From NCBI RefSeq assembly GCF_024521635.1, contig NW_026250406.1, positions 744,001 to 808,000 of the forward strand: a stretch of DNA of 64,000 nt. Direction: 5' to 3'. Source of the DNA: Tricharina praecox. Taxonomy: Eukaryota. The notes beneath the pieces were generated by a model. That model worked only from the letters and a program-made list of their open reading frames with translations, ran no database searches and had not been told where the DNA came from. This document shows, piece after piece, positions 35,321-43,871 of the stretch (positions are counted from its first letter, which is position 1; each line of letters opens with the position of its first letter). Both the position numbers and the translations under genes were made by a program.

Positions 35321-36244
35321 TCCGAAAGCAGATAGATTAGGCGGGAGCCGCAGGACCAGGAGATAGGATTTGGTAACTTTATGCACGATATGCAGGTGGT
35401 CCACGGACACGGTTAGAGTGAGCGGGTGGGGAGGGGGCGAATTCAAGTTCAAGTTCGACAGGCGAGACTAGAAGCACTATGAGTGCTTCTTCCTCAGGTC
35501 GCGGGGGGTGGTCGCTGGTCAGGTGCATCGCTTCACAGCTGCGGGGCAGAAGGTTCCAAGCATAACTCCAGTATGATTGGCCCCGGTATGAGAAATGGTG
35601 ATGCGAGGTGGGCGCGGCACCGGCATCTTGGGGGCGAAAGCGTCATGCGGGCGCCCCTATAAGCGAGAAAAATGCATCGGCTCTGGTTTCCAAGCCCAAG
35701 GTTCCGTCGTATATCTCGAGATCCGCACGTAACGCCATGTGCACGGAGTTCGGTTGGTCGATAAGGCCTGAAACCCATGTGCGTGGCGGCCATGGCAGAG
35801 TATTTGCGCAGTTGCCTCTTTCGGCTCCCATTTACGGGATTCCCAGGAGCGGGATCTAGAGTGTTCAACATGCTGGTTAACCTCTTAGGCCAATAGGGCG
35901 CGTACGTGGGGTGGTGGGTGTTTTTGACCCGGTCTTCTCCCGCCTGAGTATTAATTCGGGCAGTACCCCCCCACCTCATTGAGTCGCATCGATAACCTTC
36001 AGCGGAAAAAGGTGATACCATCACCAACCCACGTCCGAACGTAAGAGACACTCGTCCAAGGATCTTGTTCGAAGGTCCGACAACTGAACTCCTCTTGCAT
36101 TGTCGATCTTGCTGCCCAAAAAAGAGACACTCGTCCTACGTCCTCGCCCTCCAAACCACTATAGACGATCGAATTCCTCTTTTCCGTAACGGACGATCAC
36201 CTTGGAGCCCCAAGAAAAGAGCAATCCGGAACGAGAGAAGCCGG

Positions 36245-37390
36245 ATGTCGGACCGAGACACCACCAAGATGGCGCCTTACCAACCCGAAGTCACTCCGGT
36301 GCTCGAAACGTCGCCGCTCATCACCGCGCGCCGCCAGTTCTTTGCCTACATGAGGACGCCGCGTTTCTACCTCGTTCTGTTTATCGGTCAGATACTCTCT
36401 CTATGCATCACGGGCACGAACACCTTCTCCGGCCTTCTGGCCAGCCGCGGTACTTCGATCCCGGCCTTCCAATCGCTCTTCAACTACGTCCTCCTCAACA
36501 TCGTCTACACGTCGTACACTCTATATAAGTATGGGTTTAGAGGGTACCTCAAGATGCTGAAGGAGCGCGGGTGGAAATACCTGATCCTCGCCTTCCTCGA
36601 TGTCGAAGGTAATTACTTCGTCGTTCTGGCCTACCGCTACACCACCGTCATCTCGGCGCAATTGATCAACTTCTGGGCCATCGTCGTCGTGGTCATCATC
36701 TCCTTTGCTTTCCTGCGCGTGCGATACCACTGGACGCAGGTGGTCGGTATCCTGATCTGCTGCGGTGGCATGGGACTGCTACTGGGACGTGATGCACACA
36801 ACGGCATGACGGTCGGCGGAATCCCCACGGAGCTCAAGGGCGACCTCTTCATGCTGCTCGGCGCAAGTTTCTACGGCTTGACAAACGTAGCCGAAGAGTT
36901 CCTGGTCTCGCAATCGCCGCTCTACGAGGTCGTCGGCCAGATCGGATTCTGGGGCATGCTCATCTCTGGCGCGCAAGCGGCAATTTTCGACCGCTCCCAG
37001 TTCCAAAGCGCGACTTGGACAAGCGAGGTCGGTTGGTATCTGACCGGCTTCACCCTGATCATGTTTATCTTTTACTCGACGGTGCCGATCCTGCTGCGAC
37101 TGGCGTCCGCCGCCTTCTTCAATATCAGCTTGCTCACGAGCAACTTCTACGGTGTCGCCATCGGCATCAGGGTCTTTGGTTACGTGCTGGACAAGTATTA
37201 TCCGCTTGCGTTCGTCATGATTATTGTGGGTCTGGTTATTTATTTCATGTTCATTTCTGTGTACGGCGAGGCCAAGAAGCCGTGGCTGGGCGATGATCAG
37301 GCGGCCGGTGTGGTGGGCGTGGGAACGGCGAAGAAGATGGCGCTGAAAGAGCCGGCGGCGGTGGGGCCCCAGGGTGATCGAGTCGTGTAG
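36245..37390 (+). CDS. SLC35F family (DUF914 / SLC35F1-F2-like) multi-pass membrane transporter
   Basis: Intronless ORF with about 10 hydrophobic segments; motifs GQILSLCITGTNTFS, IPAFQSLFNY, DVEGNYFVVLAYRYTT, GDLFMLLGASFYGLTNVAEEF, FFNISLLTSNFYG. ATG at 36245 (alternative 36269). Confidence 0.92.
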   Translation: MSDRDTTKMAPYQPEVTPVLETSPLITARRQFFAYMRTPRFYLVLFIGQILSLCITGTNTFSGLLASRGTSIPAFQSLFNYVLLNIVYTSYTLYKYGFRGYLKMLKERGWKYLILAFLDVEGNYFVVLAYRYTTVISAQLINFWAIVVVVIISFAFLRVRYHWTQVVGILICCGGMGLLLGRDAHNGMTVGGIPTELKGDLFMLLGASFYGLTNVAEEFLVSQSPLYEVVGQIGFWGMLISGAQAAIFDRSQFQSATWTSEVGWYLTGFTLIMFIFYSTVPILLRLASAAFFNISLLTSNFYGVAIGIRVFGYVLDKYYPLAFVMIIVGLVIYFMFISVYGEAKKPWLGDDQAAGVVGVGTAKKMALKEPAAVGPQGDRVV

Positions 37391-37948
37391 GTTTCGGGTG
37401 TGTTATGAAGCTGGCAATGGCTGGCGAGTAATGATGTGCACATACCGTGCGGTGGAGAAGGGGGCATGCGGGCCTGTTGTTCGTTTTGTATGTATGCCTT
37501 GTACACCTTATATGCCCGATATGCCGTGGGTCTCGTGCGGTCGGCCTGGAGATTTACCTATGTGGAATGTATGTAATCGAGTCCCGGTAGAGATGGGTTC
37601 GCTTGAGATTGTTCGTCACGTTCATCGTTGATCACTCGGCTGTTTTCCATGCGCCGCGCCCCACACCCGCAAGTGAAACCGGTAGATTACCGTCATCGCA
37701 CTGGTATTTGGTTATCACGAACGCCCGCGACCAATATCTACACTCTACGATTACGAGGTTGCGCTTCCAGTCTTTTTTTCGCCCTCGCGTCGCACAACAT
37801 AGTGATCATTCTTATTGCCGCCGGTCCTTATTAAGCTAACTACGCACAGGCCACAAAGATCCCCGTCCTTGCTTGCACCATCCAGCCTCGAGCAACTGTC
37901 CGACTGTGTGCCCGCTCACACTCGAGAATCAATCCACATGCCGAAACC

Positions 37949-39024
37949 ATGAGCACTCCACAACACTCCTCACGTACCGCCTCCCGAGCGCAATCTCCCT
38001 CGCAGTCCATATCGCCTCTTCCGACGAACGGCATCATAAATATAGACCCACCTCCGCTGTTCGTCGGGCAAGGCTTTGCCGATTTCAAGGTATCTCCCCC
38101 ATCCCGATACCCGCTCTCTTCCAGCAACTTCCCGCTTCACGCTATTCCCCTCCCCACACAAAACTCACCGCCCCCTCCGACCGACCGGGCCGACCGCTAA
38201 CCTATTCGCAGACATTCAAGGACAAGCTCACGGACTGGGCCATCTCCGCCAAAGCAAGCCCACCTACCACCCCACTCTCCGGCCCCACACTACCACACAC
38301 AAACAAAAAAAACGCGTCGCTTTTCTTCTCTAGTTCATGACTTGAATGGGAGATATCGATCTGGAATGGGGTGGGGGAGGGGAAAGCAGCAGAGCGCGGG
38401 GCTAACTGATTCTGCGGGTTCACTCAACAGTTCTACACGCGCACCAAAAAGTCCGACGCGAAACGGGTCATCGTCGATTGTGCGAGCCCAGTATGTGCCT
38501 TCCACGTGCGCGCGTACATGTGTGCTCGTCGGGGCTGTGTCGTGGTCGGCACCCTGATGCCAGAGCACACTTGTACGCCGGAGGCCATGGTCAACAAGAA
38601 ACGCGCGCCGGCGAGTAAACAGGCGTGGATCCAGCGAGTGCTGCCGGAGACGATCGATGTTACGAGGGATACAACGCCGACCCAAATTATTGAGGCGATA
38701 CAGAAAAAGTGGAACCATACAATACGATATGAGGCTGCTCAGAGGGCTAAAAGCATGGCTCTTGCTGGCGCGGGGCTGATTGGTGGTAGTGGTGTCGGTG
38801 TCGGTGTCGGCGGCGGTGGTGGTGGCGGTGGTGGTAGTGGCGGCAATGGTGGTGGTGGAGGAGTCAATCTTCAGGGCAGCGTAATGGCGGCGACAAGGAC
38901 ACAACTTCATCAGGCGCTTCCACCGCCTCCTCCACCAACGCCGCCACAACAGCAGCAACACCAACAGCATCAGCAGCAGGTGCATCAGCAACAGCAACAG
39001 CAAGTGCATCAGCAACAGCAACAG

Positions 39025-39059
<35 letters not shown>

Positions 39060-40026
39060 ACAGCAGCAGCAACAGCAGCAGCAACAGCAGCAACAACAAC
39101 AGCAACAACAACAGCAACAACAACAGCAACAACAACAACAACAGCAACAACAACAGCAGCAACAACAACGACAGCAGCAACAGCGGCAGGCACAGCACCA
39201 ACAGCAGAATCAGAACCAAAACCACCTGCAAGGAGGTGGGATCAACCCGTCACAAACAATCACAAAAACACCCACCGCAACGCCCACACAGCAACAACAC
39301 CACCCGAATACCATCACCACCTTCCATCACCACCATACCCTCCCGGGCAACAATCTTCTCTTCTCCCCACCACCATCAGCTCCACAACCTTCGCCGCCGC
39401 CCGCAGCTCCAACATTTGCCCCCCCTCAACAACCAGCACCCCCAGCGCCAGTATCAGCACCTCCAGCACCTCCAGCACCTCCCGTGACACCACCACCCCC
39501 TCCGAAGCAGGGCCCAGAATACGCCGCACGTGCCATCCGCATCGCTATCACGGACCCTCTGCTTGCACCCTATCCACGGGCAAGCCACCCATGGCGTGGC
39601 AAATCCGTATTCCTACGTTATGGTATGCTCCGCGGGCCAACACTACGCGACTTGCTTCGCTGCATCCAGCGACATCTACCTCCAGGACGGGTGCCATACT
39701 ACATTACCGGTGCCATCTCGGCGGAAGACGTTCCAGCCGCCGATGAGGTCGGGCATGCCGAAGACATGGAGGGGGGCGGGGAGACTGGCACAGTTGTACT
39801 CAAAGACGATGACGACATAGAGGCGTGGTGGTGGATCTCCGCGGCAAGGCCAATGGAGGTCCAGGTCGTGCTCGACTCTCCGACCGATCCGGCCGGGGAC
39901 ATGGCGCAGATCTTGGGTGTCGAGGCTGTCAATGGCGTTGGCGTCAAGAGGCCCCGTGTTGATGTGGGTGTCTGGGAGGAGGTATTGGGCGAAGAGAATG
40001 GGGGGAGGAGGAGAAGAGTCGGGTAG
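37949..40026 (+). CDS. MuDR/Mutator transposase N-terminal (WRKY/GCM1-type Zn) domain protein with polyG/polyQ/Pro-rich middle and a PB1-like C-terminus; no DDE catalytic domain
   Basis: Exons 37949-38089, 38212-38253, 38431-40026 (second intron GC-AG). Spliced sequence: PPLFVGQGFADFKTFKDKLTDWAISAKFYTRTKKSDAKRVIVDCASPVCAFHVRAYMCARRGCVVVGTLMPEHTC..WIQRVL..TPTQIIEAIQKKWNHTIRYEAAQRAKSMAL. Confidence 0.78.
38947..39210 (+). repeat. CAG/CAA polyglutamine tract (uninterrupted run ~53 Q at 39010-39168)
   Basis: Direct reading of (CAG/CAA)n, in frame with the 37949-40026 gene. Confidence 0.95.
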
Positions 40027-42404
40027 TCCCGTGGCTAGGGCTTTGCATTTCCGATATTTCGCACCGTTTCTCATTTGTGGGCGTTCTTTGGGGGTTGGGG
40101 TTAGGGTTGGTCGGATTGGATTGGATCGGTTGGTTGGCTGGCATGGTGCTCAAGAGGCAACGTGGGGGGTAGAATGCATTTCGTCTTTCCTTCTTTTTCT
40201 TCTTCTTCTTCTTTGCTTGTCTCTCTCGATATCTCTGTCTTTGTTTTTCTTTGGCATCTGAAGCTGCGAGAAGTCTGGTCTGGTTCTGCTCTGGTTCTAC
40301 TCTTTTTATTTGTTGTGTTCCCCTTTGTTTAATTTTGTGTTCTGGTCCGGTCTCATCTTATACTCTTCTTTCTATTGAGTTACTTACTTACTCACTCGTC
40401 TACTGATTTGGTGCGCGCCTGTTGCACTCTCTCTCTCTCTTGCTTTGGGGAATTTATACCCAATATATCCTCTGACATGTGCGTCCTCACGTGTTCCCGT
40501 GTTTCACATGTCGAGGCTCGTGATCACAGTAGCCCTTGATCTCGCATCGGTTTCAGCTTCTATTGACTACCCGCCCACTGCCGAGTTTGGGTAACGGAGC
40601 TGCCACGATGGCAATGTTCAGCCCATCGACTTGTTACGTGCATTGTACATAATAGTCACACTGATTTTTCTCACGAAGACCACCGTATACCTATACGAAC
40701 GGTGAAACTTCTAGCCGGACCGCGCGTACTATGCAGGTACTCGTAGGATACCATACGATACGGCATAGCCACCGAAGCATTGGAGTGGCTCAGACCTCCA
40801 GTCACCAGTGAGCCTAGAGCACGATGCCGAAAATGCCGAATAGGTAGTTACCGGTAGTCTGGCGTGCGGTGAGGGCTTCGGTGGCTGTGTACATAGGGAC
40901 CCAGGAGACCCCGTATGGCTACTTATAGGTACATAAGGTAGTAGTTACTGGGTCAAGTTATGTACCTACCATACACACGCCAGCTAGGGGAAAGGGGGAT
41001 GTAGTTTGTATGAGTATATGGTGTACACTACATTGGTGGTGGTTGGAATCGAGCCGCACTGAGCCGGCGGCGACGGCGGCGGCGGACGGAGGGATGAGAT
41101 AAGCGTGGAGATACCCGATCACCGCTACATACGGACCAACGGTTGCACGCAGGTGAACAAGCTTTTTGAGTACTGCACCTACGGTGTCTGTCCGTGGTCA
41201 GGATCTAGGTACTCTATGTACGGTAGGTACTCCGCTCGAGACGAGGCCGAGATCAGGGTCTCTCGCAGGCGGTAACTACGGTACGGTATGTATGCTTCCG
41301 TAGAGTATATGTATATGTAGCGAAACACTTGACTGCCCTGCCACTGCCACTGCCGGATTCCTGCGGAAGTGTGGGGAGATTTATGCATAGAGTACGTACG
41401 ATCTCCCTTCAAGGAGCGGAGCGGACTCGGCGGAGGCCAAGAGGAGCGACGGGGAGCGTCCTGAAAAGGTGCCATGTGCCAGGTAAAAATACCTAACTAA
41501 GCCTCGGCTACAACGGGAGAGTCGAAACGACTCACGAGACCACCACCTGGAAGTCTGGACTCTGGAACAAGGACGGTGTTCAGTTCAGTTCAGCTTCCCA
41601 GCTGAGGAGGAGGTGCCAGTAGGTAGAGTAGAGCACATGTAGCTCGGTGGCGGACACTACATGCACCGACTTACATAAGTCAACCAGTCCCAGTCCGCAA
41701 CCCGCGACTGGGCCTTGACGGGCCAATCAGCGCGGCGCCCGCGTTCGCGTGGTGTGTGAAGGGTGAAGGGACGCACGTTACGCACACACTACGCGAGAAG
41801 GTTCCAGCCGGAGCATTTCGTGCGTTCCTTTAAAGCTGTGCACTTCCCGTCTCTGTGGGTGTTTCTGCTCTTCGAGCTCTCATCTACATATATAGAGTTT
41901 TTGGATCTTTGAGTTTTATGCTTTGAGTTTGAACGCGCGGAATCTGGTTTTGACGGGTGGATCGATCTGTCCGAGTACTCTGCGATACGTTCACTACTTT
42001 GCTTCATTTGCTTGCTTGCTTCATTTGCTTGCATCGGCTTTTTTCTCTTGGCTACATACATACGCAGGAGCATATCGTTAGTGTCTGCCTGCCTGCGGAG
42101 AGCGAGGAGATATTTTTTTGGTGGTTGTGGTGGTGAGTTCTTGCTTGGTGCGCGCACTGCTGCTGATTGGCTGGTCGAGGAGCACGCGAACACGAAGGCT
42201 GCTTCTTTCTTCACCGGAGTGGAAGCGGGCGGGCCCCTGAAAGGCTCAGCGCAGTCGGCTAACTGTCGATGTCACAGGACCCTTACAGGACCCTTACATA
42301 CAGCTTCATCCAGCTTTCAGCATTCGGGACCTGCCTTCAGTCCAAAGATCCGCCATACGAGACCGTCGTCCGGTATACTCTATATTATAACCCGGACGGG
42401 AAAG

Positions 42405-43871
42405 ATGGGGCGGACGATGGACGAGAAAATGGTGGTGGTGGAGGAGAGCGCGAGTGTTGCGCACACCCCCGGCAGCGACATGCGTACGAACACGACGGTT
42501 GCCGATACGCCGTGCCGGAGTGGGACCGGAGCCAGCGGGCAGCAGCAGAACCATGCTTGCGCCATCACTCATCCTCGCGCCGATGGTTTCTGCTGCTGCT
42601 GCTGCTGCAGCGATGACGGCCCGGGTCGAACTTCTTCCGAGAAGTCTTACCACCGCTACAGCAACAACCACCCCCATGCGAATCAATTCGAAAAATACCC
42701 AAACCACAACACCCTCCTCCCACCCCTTGCACCACTCTCCGCAACCCAACAATACACAGCTGTCGACATGAGACCTAGGAGGCGATTCATGCGTCTGATC
42801 GTATACTCGGTCCTGGTCACTGTGTTTACCGCTCTCTTCTACTCGATCCTCATCGTCATATTGGGCCCCGGGCCCCCGGAGGAGCCCGGCGTCAACTTGG
42901 CTTCGGCGAAGCGATTGGGCTACAAGCAACTGGAGGATATTCCGCCTCGCCATGTTCCGAGGGAGTACGACACCGATGTCAGGAGACTGGTGTTCATTGG
43001 CGACGTGCACGGCATGTTTACAGAGCGTATGCAAACACCCCCTTAAGGGTGGAGTGAGAGGGGGGGGGGGCTGATAGTCATGTACTAATTGCAACTGCTG
43101 CATAGTGAAGGACCTCCTCAAGAAGGCCAACTACGACGAAGCCACCGACCACATCGTCTTCACCGGCGACCTGGTGACCAAAGGCCCGGACTCCCTGAAG
43201 GTCGTCGATTTCGCCCGCAAACACGGCGCCAGCTGCGTCCGCGGCAACCAGGACGACCGTGTACTGCTACACTACCACCACGACCAGGCCCACGTGACGG
43301 ACTCCCTCTCGGACAGCGAAGCGGATCCCGCCCACAAGGTCTCCAAATCTGAGGCGATGATTAGGATCGAGAAGGCGCTGGCGAGGAAGATGACGAAGGA
43401 GCAGGCGGAGTGGCTGGACTCCTGCCCGCTCATCCTCAAGGCCGATGGCGTCAAGGGGCTGGGGAATATTGCCGTCGTGCATGCGGGATTGGTGCATGGT
43501 GTTCCGTTGAGACAGCAGGATCCGGCGGCCCTCATGACGATGCGCAGTATTCAACCTAGATCTAGGGTCCCGAGCTCGGGCACCGACGGAACCCACTGGG
43601 CGCGGTTGTGGAATCGCCGTGAGAAGAACGAGAGGGTTCCGCGTACTGTTATGTATGTTATTCCCAACCCCAACCCAACCCCTTAGCAGGCAGCTGACCG
43701 TGGGATAGCTATGGACACTACGCGGCCAAGGGTCTCGACATCCGCCCTCTCTCCAAGGGTCTCGACAGCAACTGTGTCCGTGGTGGTAAACTCACCGCGC
43801 TGATCGCGTCGACCCGAACCGACGAGCCCGAGATGGTATCTGTTTGTTGCCGCAAGTACTACAACAAATAG
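42405..43871 (+). CDS. Calcineurin-like metallophosphoesterase, PPN2/YNL217W-like, with a single N-proximal TM segment
   Basis: Exons 42405-43026, 43106-43652, 43709-43871. Motifs FIGDVHG, FTGDLVTKGP, VRGNQDD, VVHAGL, IYGH, GLDSNCV. TM segment LIVYSVLVTVFTALFYSILIVIL follows RPRRRFMR. Confidence 0.88.

Follow-up and report, generated by a model that had tools for sequence, protein, structure and literature searches.

What kind of gene retains the DNA-binding part of a transposase, lacks everything that would allow the protein to cut DNA, and sits among ordinary genes? This question is raised by a three-exon gene located on the forward strand, at positions 37949-40026, of a stretch of 64,000 nucleotides from the fungus Tricharina praecox (NCBI RefSeq assembly GCF_024521635.1, contig NW_026250406.1, positions 744,001 to 808,000), hereafter called the window. 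Sequence comparisons point to a Pezizomycete host gene exapted from the transposase of a Mutator-like element (MULE), whose product is most likely a sequence-specific transcriptional regulator, and we regard this reading as the probable one. The arguments for it are set out below together with three other explanations, namely a protein that restrains related transposons, a structural adaptor anchored on DNA, and the absence of any working gene.

Transposase descent of the N-terminal region

From its sequence, the N-terminus of the protein is the DNA-binding part of a MULE transposase, which agrees with the MuDR/MULE-type arrangement proposed in the initial annotation of the locus. Indeed, a phmmer search of 1.84 billion proteins, for which the 115 residues at the start of exon 3 served as query, returned 115 matches at E≤1e-3, of which 14 reached E≤1e-10, so that the resemblance is far above chance. 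Three of these matches, P0005 (7e-19), P0011 (1.2e-12) and P0024 (2.2e-9), carry the MULE domain PF10551. A Pfam scan covered 53 of the 115 matches (the top scorers P0003-P0009 and P0011-P0013, plus longer proteins) and detected PF03108 (DBD_Tnp_Mut) at E≤0.01 in 46, with 43 reaching the Pfam cut-off; it was absent from P0003, P0050, P0056, P0076, P0082, P0106 and P0113. Since PF10551 was also present in 14 of the 53, several of them with Transposase_mut and SWIM domains, these 14 homologues are real transposases. Word-indexed protein searches found nothing, either with the whole of exon 3, for which polyglutamine (polyQ) words swamped the search, or with its first 115 residues.

When the spliced N-terminus was used as query, the alignments began at amino acids (aa) 33-42 and the bit scores rose from 84 to 106 for P0005, from 64 to 83 for P0011 and from 93 to 119 for P0004, implying that the first half of the domain, which exon 3 lacks, is encoded by exons 1 and 2. 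The homology to the N-termini of fungal MULE transposases covers residues 35-176, at 30-45% identity, and the zinc pattern C-X4-C-X23-H-X-C extends over aa 78-109; in an alignment with 10 homologues including transposases, C17, C22 and C48 (exon 3 numbering) are invariant and H46 is nearly so. The motifs first described for this region are all where they had been placed, save that three residues (SAK) and not two separate DWAI from the following F; in the homologue P0007, DWSISAKF spans the exon 2/3 junction. Within a transposon, the N-terminal zinc-finger part recognises the element's own ends.

The homology stops abruptly and, as judged from the alignments, the catalytic part of the transposase is lost. 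Past TPTQIIEAIQKKWNHTIRYEAAQRAKSMAL, the transposases run into the catalytic segment DGTF...SDRDKG, where the window protein goes into poly-Gly. Furthermore, PF10551 gave no match at E≤10 in the window protein, and seven full-length transposases align solely to 38410-38769, with no other match across the window or the five related loci. A search for flanking inverted repeats over 35500-42500 returned only chance-level pairs, with arms of 14-20 nt that are 79-93% complementary, and a single copy of the gene was found in the window and in each fetched locus. Thus the initial statements that both the DDE domain and terminal inverted repeats (TIRs) are missing hold. No match to the AFT family PF08731 was obtained with the window protein at E≤10, and weak secondary matches to it occur on some homologues. 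Without the DDE catalytic core, the protein would still bind DNA and be unable to cleave it.

The placement of the gene was examined with a quick maximum-likelihood tree (77 rows, 143 columns), which comprised the 73 matches aligned to 110 query residues or more, together with P0003 and the spliced orthologues from the window, L001 and L003 (see below); shorter matches were excluded. All three orthologues group together (SH-aLRT 100), with the fragment P0003 as sister (81), a sequence that is 63% identical and turns Q/P-rich past the conserved segment. Together they are nested in a clade (90) with the MULE-domain rows P0005, P0008, P0024 and P0032, the label of P0008 coming from sequence reading and not from Pfam. 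Node support is moderate, and the nesting agrees with descent from a transposase without being proof alone.

Constraint, position and splicing of the gene

A scan of metagenome contigs retrieved five loci, L001-L005. The whole gene is present and intact in two of them, encoding 550 aa in L001 and 515 aa in L003, and the C-terminal module is found at 72-92% identity in L002, L004, L005 and in Sphaerosporella brunnea. The S. brunnea protein, a 219-aa 'hypothetical protein' (P0118, FN846DRAFT_946994; 83% identity over 96 aa in the search with the C-terminal region), is the sole named relative. The public model of P0118 begins at the internal Met of MLRQPTLRD and continues after MAQI with 123 residues foreign to the other orthologues; by comparison with these, it looks truncated and mis-spliced.

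In the window, the gene lies between an SLC35F gene upstream and Metallophos and Bax1-I genes downstream, ordinary neighbours that bear out the housekeeping surroundings first described, and an SLC35F gene is also located upstream in L001 and L003. The selection regime was examined by the Nei-Gojobori method with a custom script, giving nonsynonymous (dN) and synonymous (dS) divergences from the window sequence. For the DNA-binding part (112 codons of exon 3), dN is 0.050 and dS 1.5 against L003, and 0.008 and 0.42 against L001; for aa 1-176, the values are 0.067 and 1.9 against L003, and 0.014 and 0.39 against L001; for the C-terminal module, 0.153 and 1.6 against L003, 0.029 and 0.69 against L001, and 0.022 and 0.51 against L002. 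The resulting dN/dS is ~0.03-0.1 on both structured parts, the ratios against L003 being approximate, though certain in direction, because dS is near saturation there. The middle region gives 0.35 and 2.05 against L003, with gaps in 132 of 292 alignment columns. Strong purifying selection acts on both ends of the protein, and the Gly/Gln/Pro middle is free to change. In the DNA-binding part, identity is 92% with L003 and 98% with L001, higher than in the core of the SLC35F neighbour (81% and 84%, respectively); for this neighbour, dN is 0.125 and dS 1.39 against L003. The introns of the window and of L001 share 57-63% identity, compared with 92% for the adjacent exon DNA. Orthologues with upstream synteny and dN/dS below 1, by which the gene was to be checked, are thus found.

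Spliced contigs come from three public runs belonging to three studies. Both introns are removed in one X2 contig, X3 lacks intron 2 and X4 lacks intron 1, so that both joints of the two-intron gene initially drawn at this place are observed; X1, a soil-metagenome DNA run, has the unspliced form. For X2-X4, it is the splicing of the contigs that points to RNA. Both intron positions are kept in L001 and L003, and the donor of intron 2, on which the initial annotation is silent, is GC in the window and L001 and GT in L003. Intron 2 is retained in X3 record 9 and X4 record 12, and its splicing may be inefficient or regulated.

These observations bear on the explanation that there is no working gene at all, but a MULE fragment, either decaying or non-autonomous, or else a chimeric open reading frame (ORF) that arose by chance and is transcribed. 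Such an explanation would account for the ~40% of the ORF that is of low complexity and for a truncated 219-aa 'hypothetical protein' being the only public annotation of an orthologue. However, it has to face intact ORFs of 592, 550 and 515 aa whose intron positions are shared by all three diverged lineages, the low dN/dS on both structured parts, introns that have diverged far more than the adjacent exons between the window and L001, the SLC35F gene kept upstream, the absence of TIRs, and spliced transcripts; we consider it extremely improbable. The accessible part of PMC4948706 names an intact frame, lack of TIRs, conserved microsynteny, selective constraint and expression as the marks of an exapted transposable element, and each has its counterpart here, in the intact ORFs of the three lineages, the missing TIRs, the upstream neighbour, the dN/dS values and the spliced transcripts. 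On homology, lost catalysis, splicing, synteny and purifying selection together, the earlier proposal of a host gene exapted from a Mutator element stands.

The features of the gene are collected in Table 1. Several details of its structure deserve mention. An upstream ORF of four codons, listed in the table, is unchanged in L001, and in L003 an upstream ATG in another frame lies 17 nt ahead of the start; the upstream ORF may be a translational control feature. At 38681, the X2 and X4 contigs have A in place of C, which changes Thr to Asn in TPTQII at a position that varies among homologues, and this is probably a strain difference. An alternative GT donor for intron 2 at 38316 was discarded, being out of frame and the transcript contigs using the GC donor. 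Likewise, an antisense ORF of 304 aa (38335-39249, minus strand) is a Leu-rich, poly-Leu mirror of the polyQ tract and hence no gene, and it could mislead gene callers.

Table 1. Features of the gene and of its product, in window coordinates (UTR, untranslated region; NLS, nuclear localisation signal)
Feature	Position	Strand	Remarks
Three-exon gene	37949-40026	+	592 aa spliced; no internal stops
Start and stop codons	ATG 37949; TAG 40024-40026	+	sequence reading
5' UTR	37898-37948	+	contig starts at 37898 (X4) and 37904 (X2)
Upstream ORF, 4 codons (MPKP)	37939-37953	+	ATG CCG AAA CCA TGA; TGA overlaps main ATG (ATGA); within transcript contigs
Exon 1	37949-38089	+	aa 1-47; Ser/Pro-rich N-tail and first strand region of the DNA-binding domain, ending LFVGQGFADFK
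Intron 1	38090-38211	+	122 nt, GT..AG; joint 38087->38210 (cut +2) in X2 and X4 contigs
Exon 2	38212-38253	+	aa 48-61, TFKDKLTDWAISAK
Intron 2	38254-38430	+	177 nt, GC..AG; joint 38253->38431 in X2 and X3; CTAAC branch-like site near 3' end
Exon 3	38431-40026	+	aa 62-592 (531 aa) plus TAG
MULE-type (HxC family) WRKY-GCM1 zinc-finger domain	38051-38574	+	aa 35-109, split by both introns; predicted zinc ligands C78, C83, H107, C109
Post-finger segment of MULE transposases	38575-38775	+	aa 110-176; KRAPASKQAWIQRVLPETI...TPTQIIEAIQKKWNHTIRYEAAQRAKSMAL; transposase homology stops here
Gly-rich stretch	38776-38922	+	aa 177-225; length differs among orthologues
Gln-rich stretch	38923-39237	+	aa 226-330; far shorter in L001 and L003
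Pro/Thr/His-rich, disordered-looking stretch	39238-39522	+	aa 331-425
Conserved C-terminal module	39523-40023	+	aa 426-592; IRIAITD...KSVFLRYGMLRGPTLRDLLRCIQRHL...YYITGAIS, acidic loop, TVVLKDDDDIEAWWWIS...MEVQVVLD
KRPR, candidate monopartite NLS	39946-39957	+	aa 567-570; invariant in 5/5 orthologue sequences covering it
3' UTR	40027-40183	+	minimum extent; contigs end at skipped repeat

Function of the protein and its C-terminal module

A transcription-factor function is what we infer for the protein, in which two constrained modules are joined by a variable spacer. The basic clusters would direct the protein to the nucleus, where the zinc finger would bind a specific DNA motif, possibly descended from the terminal repeats of a MULE, and the Q/P-rich region together with the C-terminal module would recruit partner proteins, the net role being that of a regulator of transcription acting at specific sequences. 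As regards nuclear import, the ~140-aa C-terminal module with its acidic DDDD motif is followed by KRPR and by a second basic cluster, RRRR (aa 587-590), which is conserved too, and the composition of KRPR suggests a nuclear localisation signal.

The Gly/Gln/Pro-rich spacer of ~250 residues is fast-evolving and probably disordered. The protein contains 103 Q in all, and its longest pure run is of exactly 53 (aa 255-307, mixed CAG/CAA), matching the length first given, a figure known from DNA alone as the transcript contigs skip 38779-39189. The polyG, Pro-rich and C-terminal parts announced together with this run were also located. In L003, the polyQ is partly replaced by poly-Pro. Two islands, GINPSQTI..TPT.TPTQ and FHHHH.LP...LLFSP, are conserved between the window (39238-39522) and the orthologues, and may be short linear interaction motifs.

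The retained DNA-binding part would also suit a protein that keeps related MULEs in check by occupying their terminal repeats, so that their transposition is blocked or silenced, either by competition or through silencing partners recruited by its C-terminus. What is kept corresponds exactly to the portion with which a transposase finds its own ends, the catalytic portion has been lost, and the nearest relatives whose architecture is known, 30-45% identical, are real MULE transposases; moreover, truncated transposases acting as repressors are known in other superfamilies. On the other hand, a dS above 1.4 with a dN of 0.05 and a fixed locus with upstream synteny indicate long-term constraint, which a host function fits more easily, and an arms race is disfavoured because it would drive faster change in the DNA-binding surface. 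The 64-kb window and the fetched loci, which represent a tiny portion of the genomes, contained neither MULE copies nor any repeats resembling TIRs. Overall, we see a role in restraining transposons as decidedly unlikely.

The C-terminal module was found in the gene's own orthologues only, by searches of proteins, of the N-terminal hits and of metagenome contigs, and has 64 invariant columns across six sequences. At E≤10, Pfam detected no family on the six orthologue C-termini, and no PF00564 on the window protein either; a profile search of PDB sequences gave a single chance-level row (E 1.3). Phmmer with the C-terminus against all 115 N-terminal matches found none at E≤10, and hhalign against P0101, P0086 and P0116, which have long N-terminal extensions, gave probabilities of 0.1-0.2. 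AlphaFold2 modelled the module with a predicted local distance difference test score (pLDDT) of 35 alone and 33 with a 7-row orthologue alignment; Foldseek with the model of pLDDT 35 returned nothing from the PDB at E≤0.001, its weaker rows being unrelated, and on such a model this search carries no meaning. The PB1-like tail suggested in the initial annotation is therefore not established, PF00564, PDB profiles and AlphaFold2 having all failed to support it.

A few leads nevertheless point in that direction. With the S. brunnea orthologue, ESM Atlas features gave a PB1-like cluster (PF26130, present on 57% of its members) and another described as 'putative PB1', which are the best among the clusters carrying a Pfam family, both at 0.86 where the line is 0.9. 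With the ESM Atlas structure of the same protein (mean pLDDT 0.54), matches extending over 69-78 residues reached template modelling (TM) scores of 0.53-0.59, all sub-threshold; they comprise PB1 and PB1-like clusters as well as plant clusters in which DBD_Tnp_Mut, MULE and 'Transposase MuDR' predominate. The motif TVVLKDDDDIEAWW is invariant in six of six orthologue sequences, with MEVQVVL downstream, and resembles by eye the second half of the OPCA motif, the acidic mark of type A PB1 domains; the first half of that motif (Y-x-D-x-x-G-D) is absent, and IRIAITD, presumably the first strand, is without the basic Lys by which type B is known. By eye too, the succession IRIAITD / KSVFLRYG / TLRDLLRCIQRHL / YYITGAIS / acidic loop / TVVLKDDDDIEAWW / MEVQVVL agrees with the order of elements in a beta-beta-alpha-beta-beta-alpha-beta grasp. 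From these models and motifs, a PB1-like fold is possible though doubtful, and we treat it as a lead only.

Two further readings depend on this module. The protein might be a structural adaptor of chromatin or DNA anchoring, in which the zinc finger would tether it to repeated sites and the C-terminal module, possibly PB1-like, would assemble partners, much as in other chromatin proteins derived from transposases. Two constrained modules separated by a long flexible spacer would suit such a role, as would the ESM Atlas leads to PB1-type interaction domains, but the evidence gives it no specific preference over a transcription factor and the PB1 assignment is under every threshold; we accord an adaptor role a low probability. 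A bolder version of the regulator reading takes the module as a diverged PB1-type beta-grasp and the gene as the fungal counterpart of MUSTANG-B and the PB1-MULEs, a lineage-specific master regulator binding sites descended from transposon ends. We think this unlikely, yet if it were true, the partnership of MULE and PB1 would be much older and wider than the published angiosperm cases, or would have arisen twice.

Returning to a host gene that encodes a sequence-specific regulator, several points weigh against it. The Metallophos and Bax1-I genes, from the compared segment 40027-45534 of the window, were not found within 10 kb downstream in L003 (10460-20432), and the saturation of dS in this comparison has been mentioned. 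On the exon 3 part, PF03108 scores 18.1 bits (E 0.0021, profile positions 29-58 of 67), under the cut-off of 25, as is expected from exon 3 encoding half a domain. The nodes around the orthologue clade have a support of just 81-90 in a quick tree on few columns. The run types of X2-X4 are guesses, X4 being labelled 'DNA?' yet having intron 1 removed. Finally, a Q/P-rich region is no proof of an activation function, and the C-terminal module is without a fold assignment from Pfam, PDB profiles, AlphaFold2 or Foldseek.

Relation to known MULE-derived proteins

The window gene represents the same kind of event as Aft1/Rcs1, Rbf1, FHY3/FAR1 and MUSTANG. Like plant FHY3/FAR1 (FRS family), which are sequence-specific DNA-binding transcription factors derived from MULEs, it would put a transposase domain to the service of the host. 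FHY3/FAR1 retain the MULE core and the SWIM domain in an inactive state, whereas the core is wholly absent from the window gene. Autonomous fungal MULEs (P0011, P0024, P0027, P0089, P0101, P0114) are homologous over their N-terminal 140 aa at 30-45% identity; compared with them, the window gene is without the DDE/MULE and SWIM domains and TIRs, and evolves under purifying selection at a locus that is fixed and whose upstream neighbour is conserved. For Ascomycota, the accessible part of PMC6446971 lists the Hop and Mutyl groups.

The closest known kind is found in the fungal proteins with HxC-type WRKY-GCM1 domains of MULE origin, which, according to the available portion of Babu et al. 2006 (PMC1702500), have a truncated or lost transposase part and were proposed to be recruited as DNA-binding domains. 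This family is described there by its short Cys spacer (C-X4-5-C ... H-X-C), and its Coccidioides and Aspergillus examples, uncharacterised, occupy one sentence of that portion. Set against these proteins as far as they are described in it, the window gene results from the same type of event but belongs to a Pezizomycete, keeps a ~65-aa post-finger segment, and adds the Gly/Gln/Pro region and the C-terminal module. Aft1/Rcs1 and Rbf1 are likewise fungal transcription factors nested among MULE DNA-binding domains, with a stand-alone domain and low-complexity regions; they differ, on the same partial source (PMC1702500), in belonging to another subfamily of the HxH type, with a long insert between two Cys, and they represent independent domestications. 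We found no literature on the window gene or on any MULE-derived regulator from Pezizomycetes, so that the words 'possibly undescribed' applied at first to this gene are fitting, as far as the literature was searched, for the gene itself and not for its class, already in print in the part of Babu et al. 2006 cited above.

As for the C-terminal module, plant MUG-B proteins and PB1-MULEs join MULE-derived proteins to a PB1 beta-grasp (Joly-Lopez et al. 2016, PMC4948706, in the part accessible), which confirms the initial remark that MUG-B proteins carry PB1. The window gene resembles MUG-B as a MULE-derived host gene, and the ESM Atlas look-alikes of its C-terminal module, all sub-threshold, include PB1 and plant MuDR-type proteins. 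It differs in that MUG-B, as presented in that part of the paper, keeps the MULE domain and has a PB1 that is recognised as PF00564 and reported from plants only, whereas the window module lies C-terminal to the finger and has no PF00564 match.

Among the N-terminal homologues, the tree also shows a clade of 17 rows (SH-aLRT 99; P0026, P0031, P0043, P0046, P0048, P0059, P0065-P0067, P0071, P0078, P0079, P0085, P0099, P0102, P0107 and P0108) made of 300-410-aa proteins in which DBD_Tnp_Mut is N-terminal, the MULE domain is missing and a CCHC zinc knuckle is often present; this clade may represent a further lineage that has lost the transposase, or else the accessory ORF of some element. Odd fusions were noted as well, DBD_Tnp_Mut being joined to L-rhamnose mutarotase in P0041 and to SH3 in P0054; each could be one more exaptation, or else a chimeric gene model.

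New transcription factors have arisen repeatedly from the DNA-binding domains of transposases. In fungi, we know of few well-studied cases (Aft1/Rcs1 and Rbf1), all from another subfamily. The window gene offers a clean and datable example from the HxC family, with a break between the DNA-binding part and the catalytic core, two constrained modules, and a polyQ/Pro spacer that evolves freely. If its tail proves PB1-like, it would provide a possible fungal parallel to the MULE-PB1 association of plants. More generally, this gene represents a tractable system for understanding how a domain that binds transposon ends gains targets in its host.

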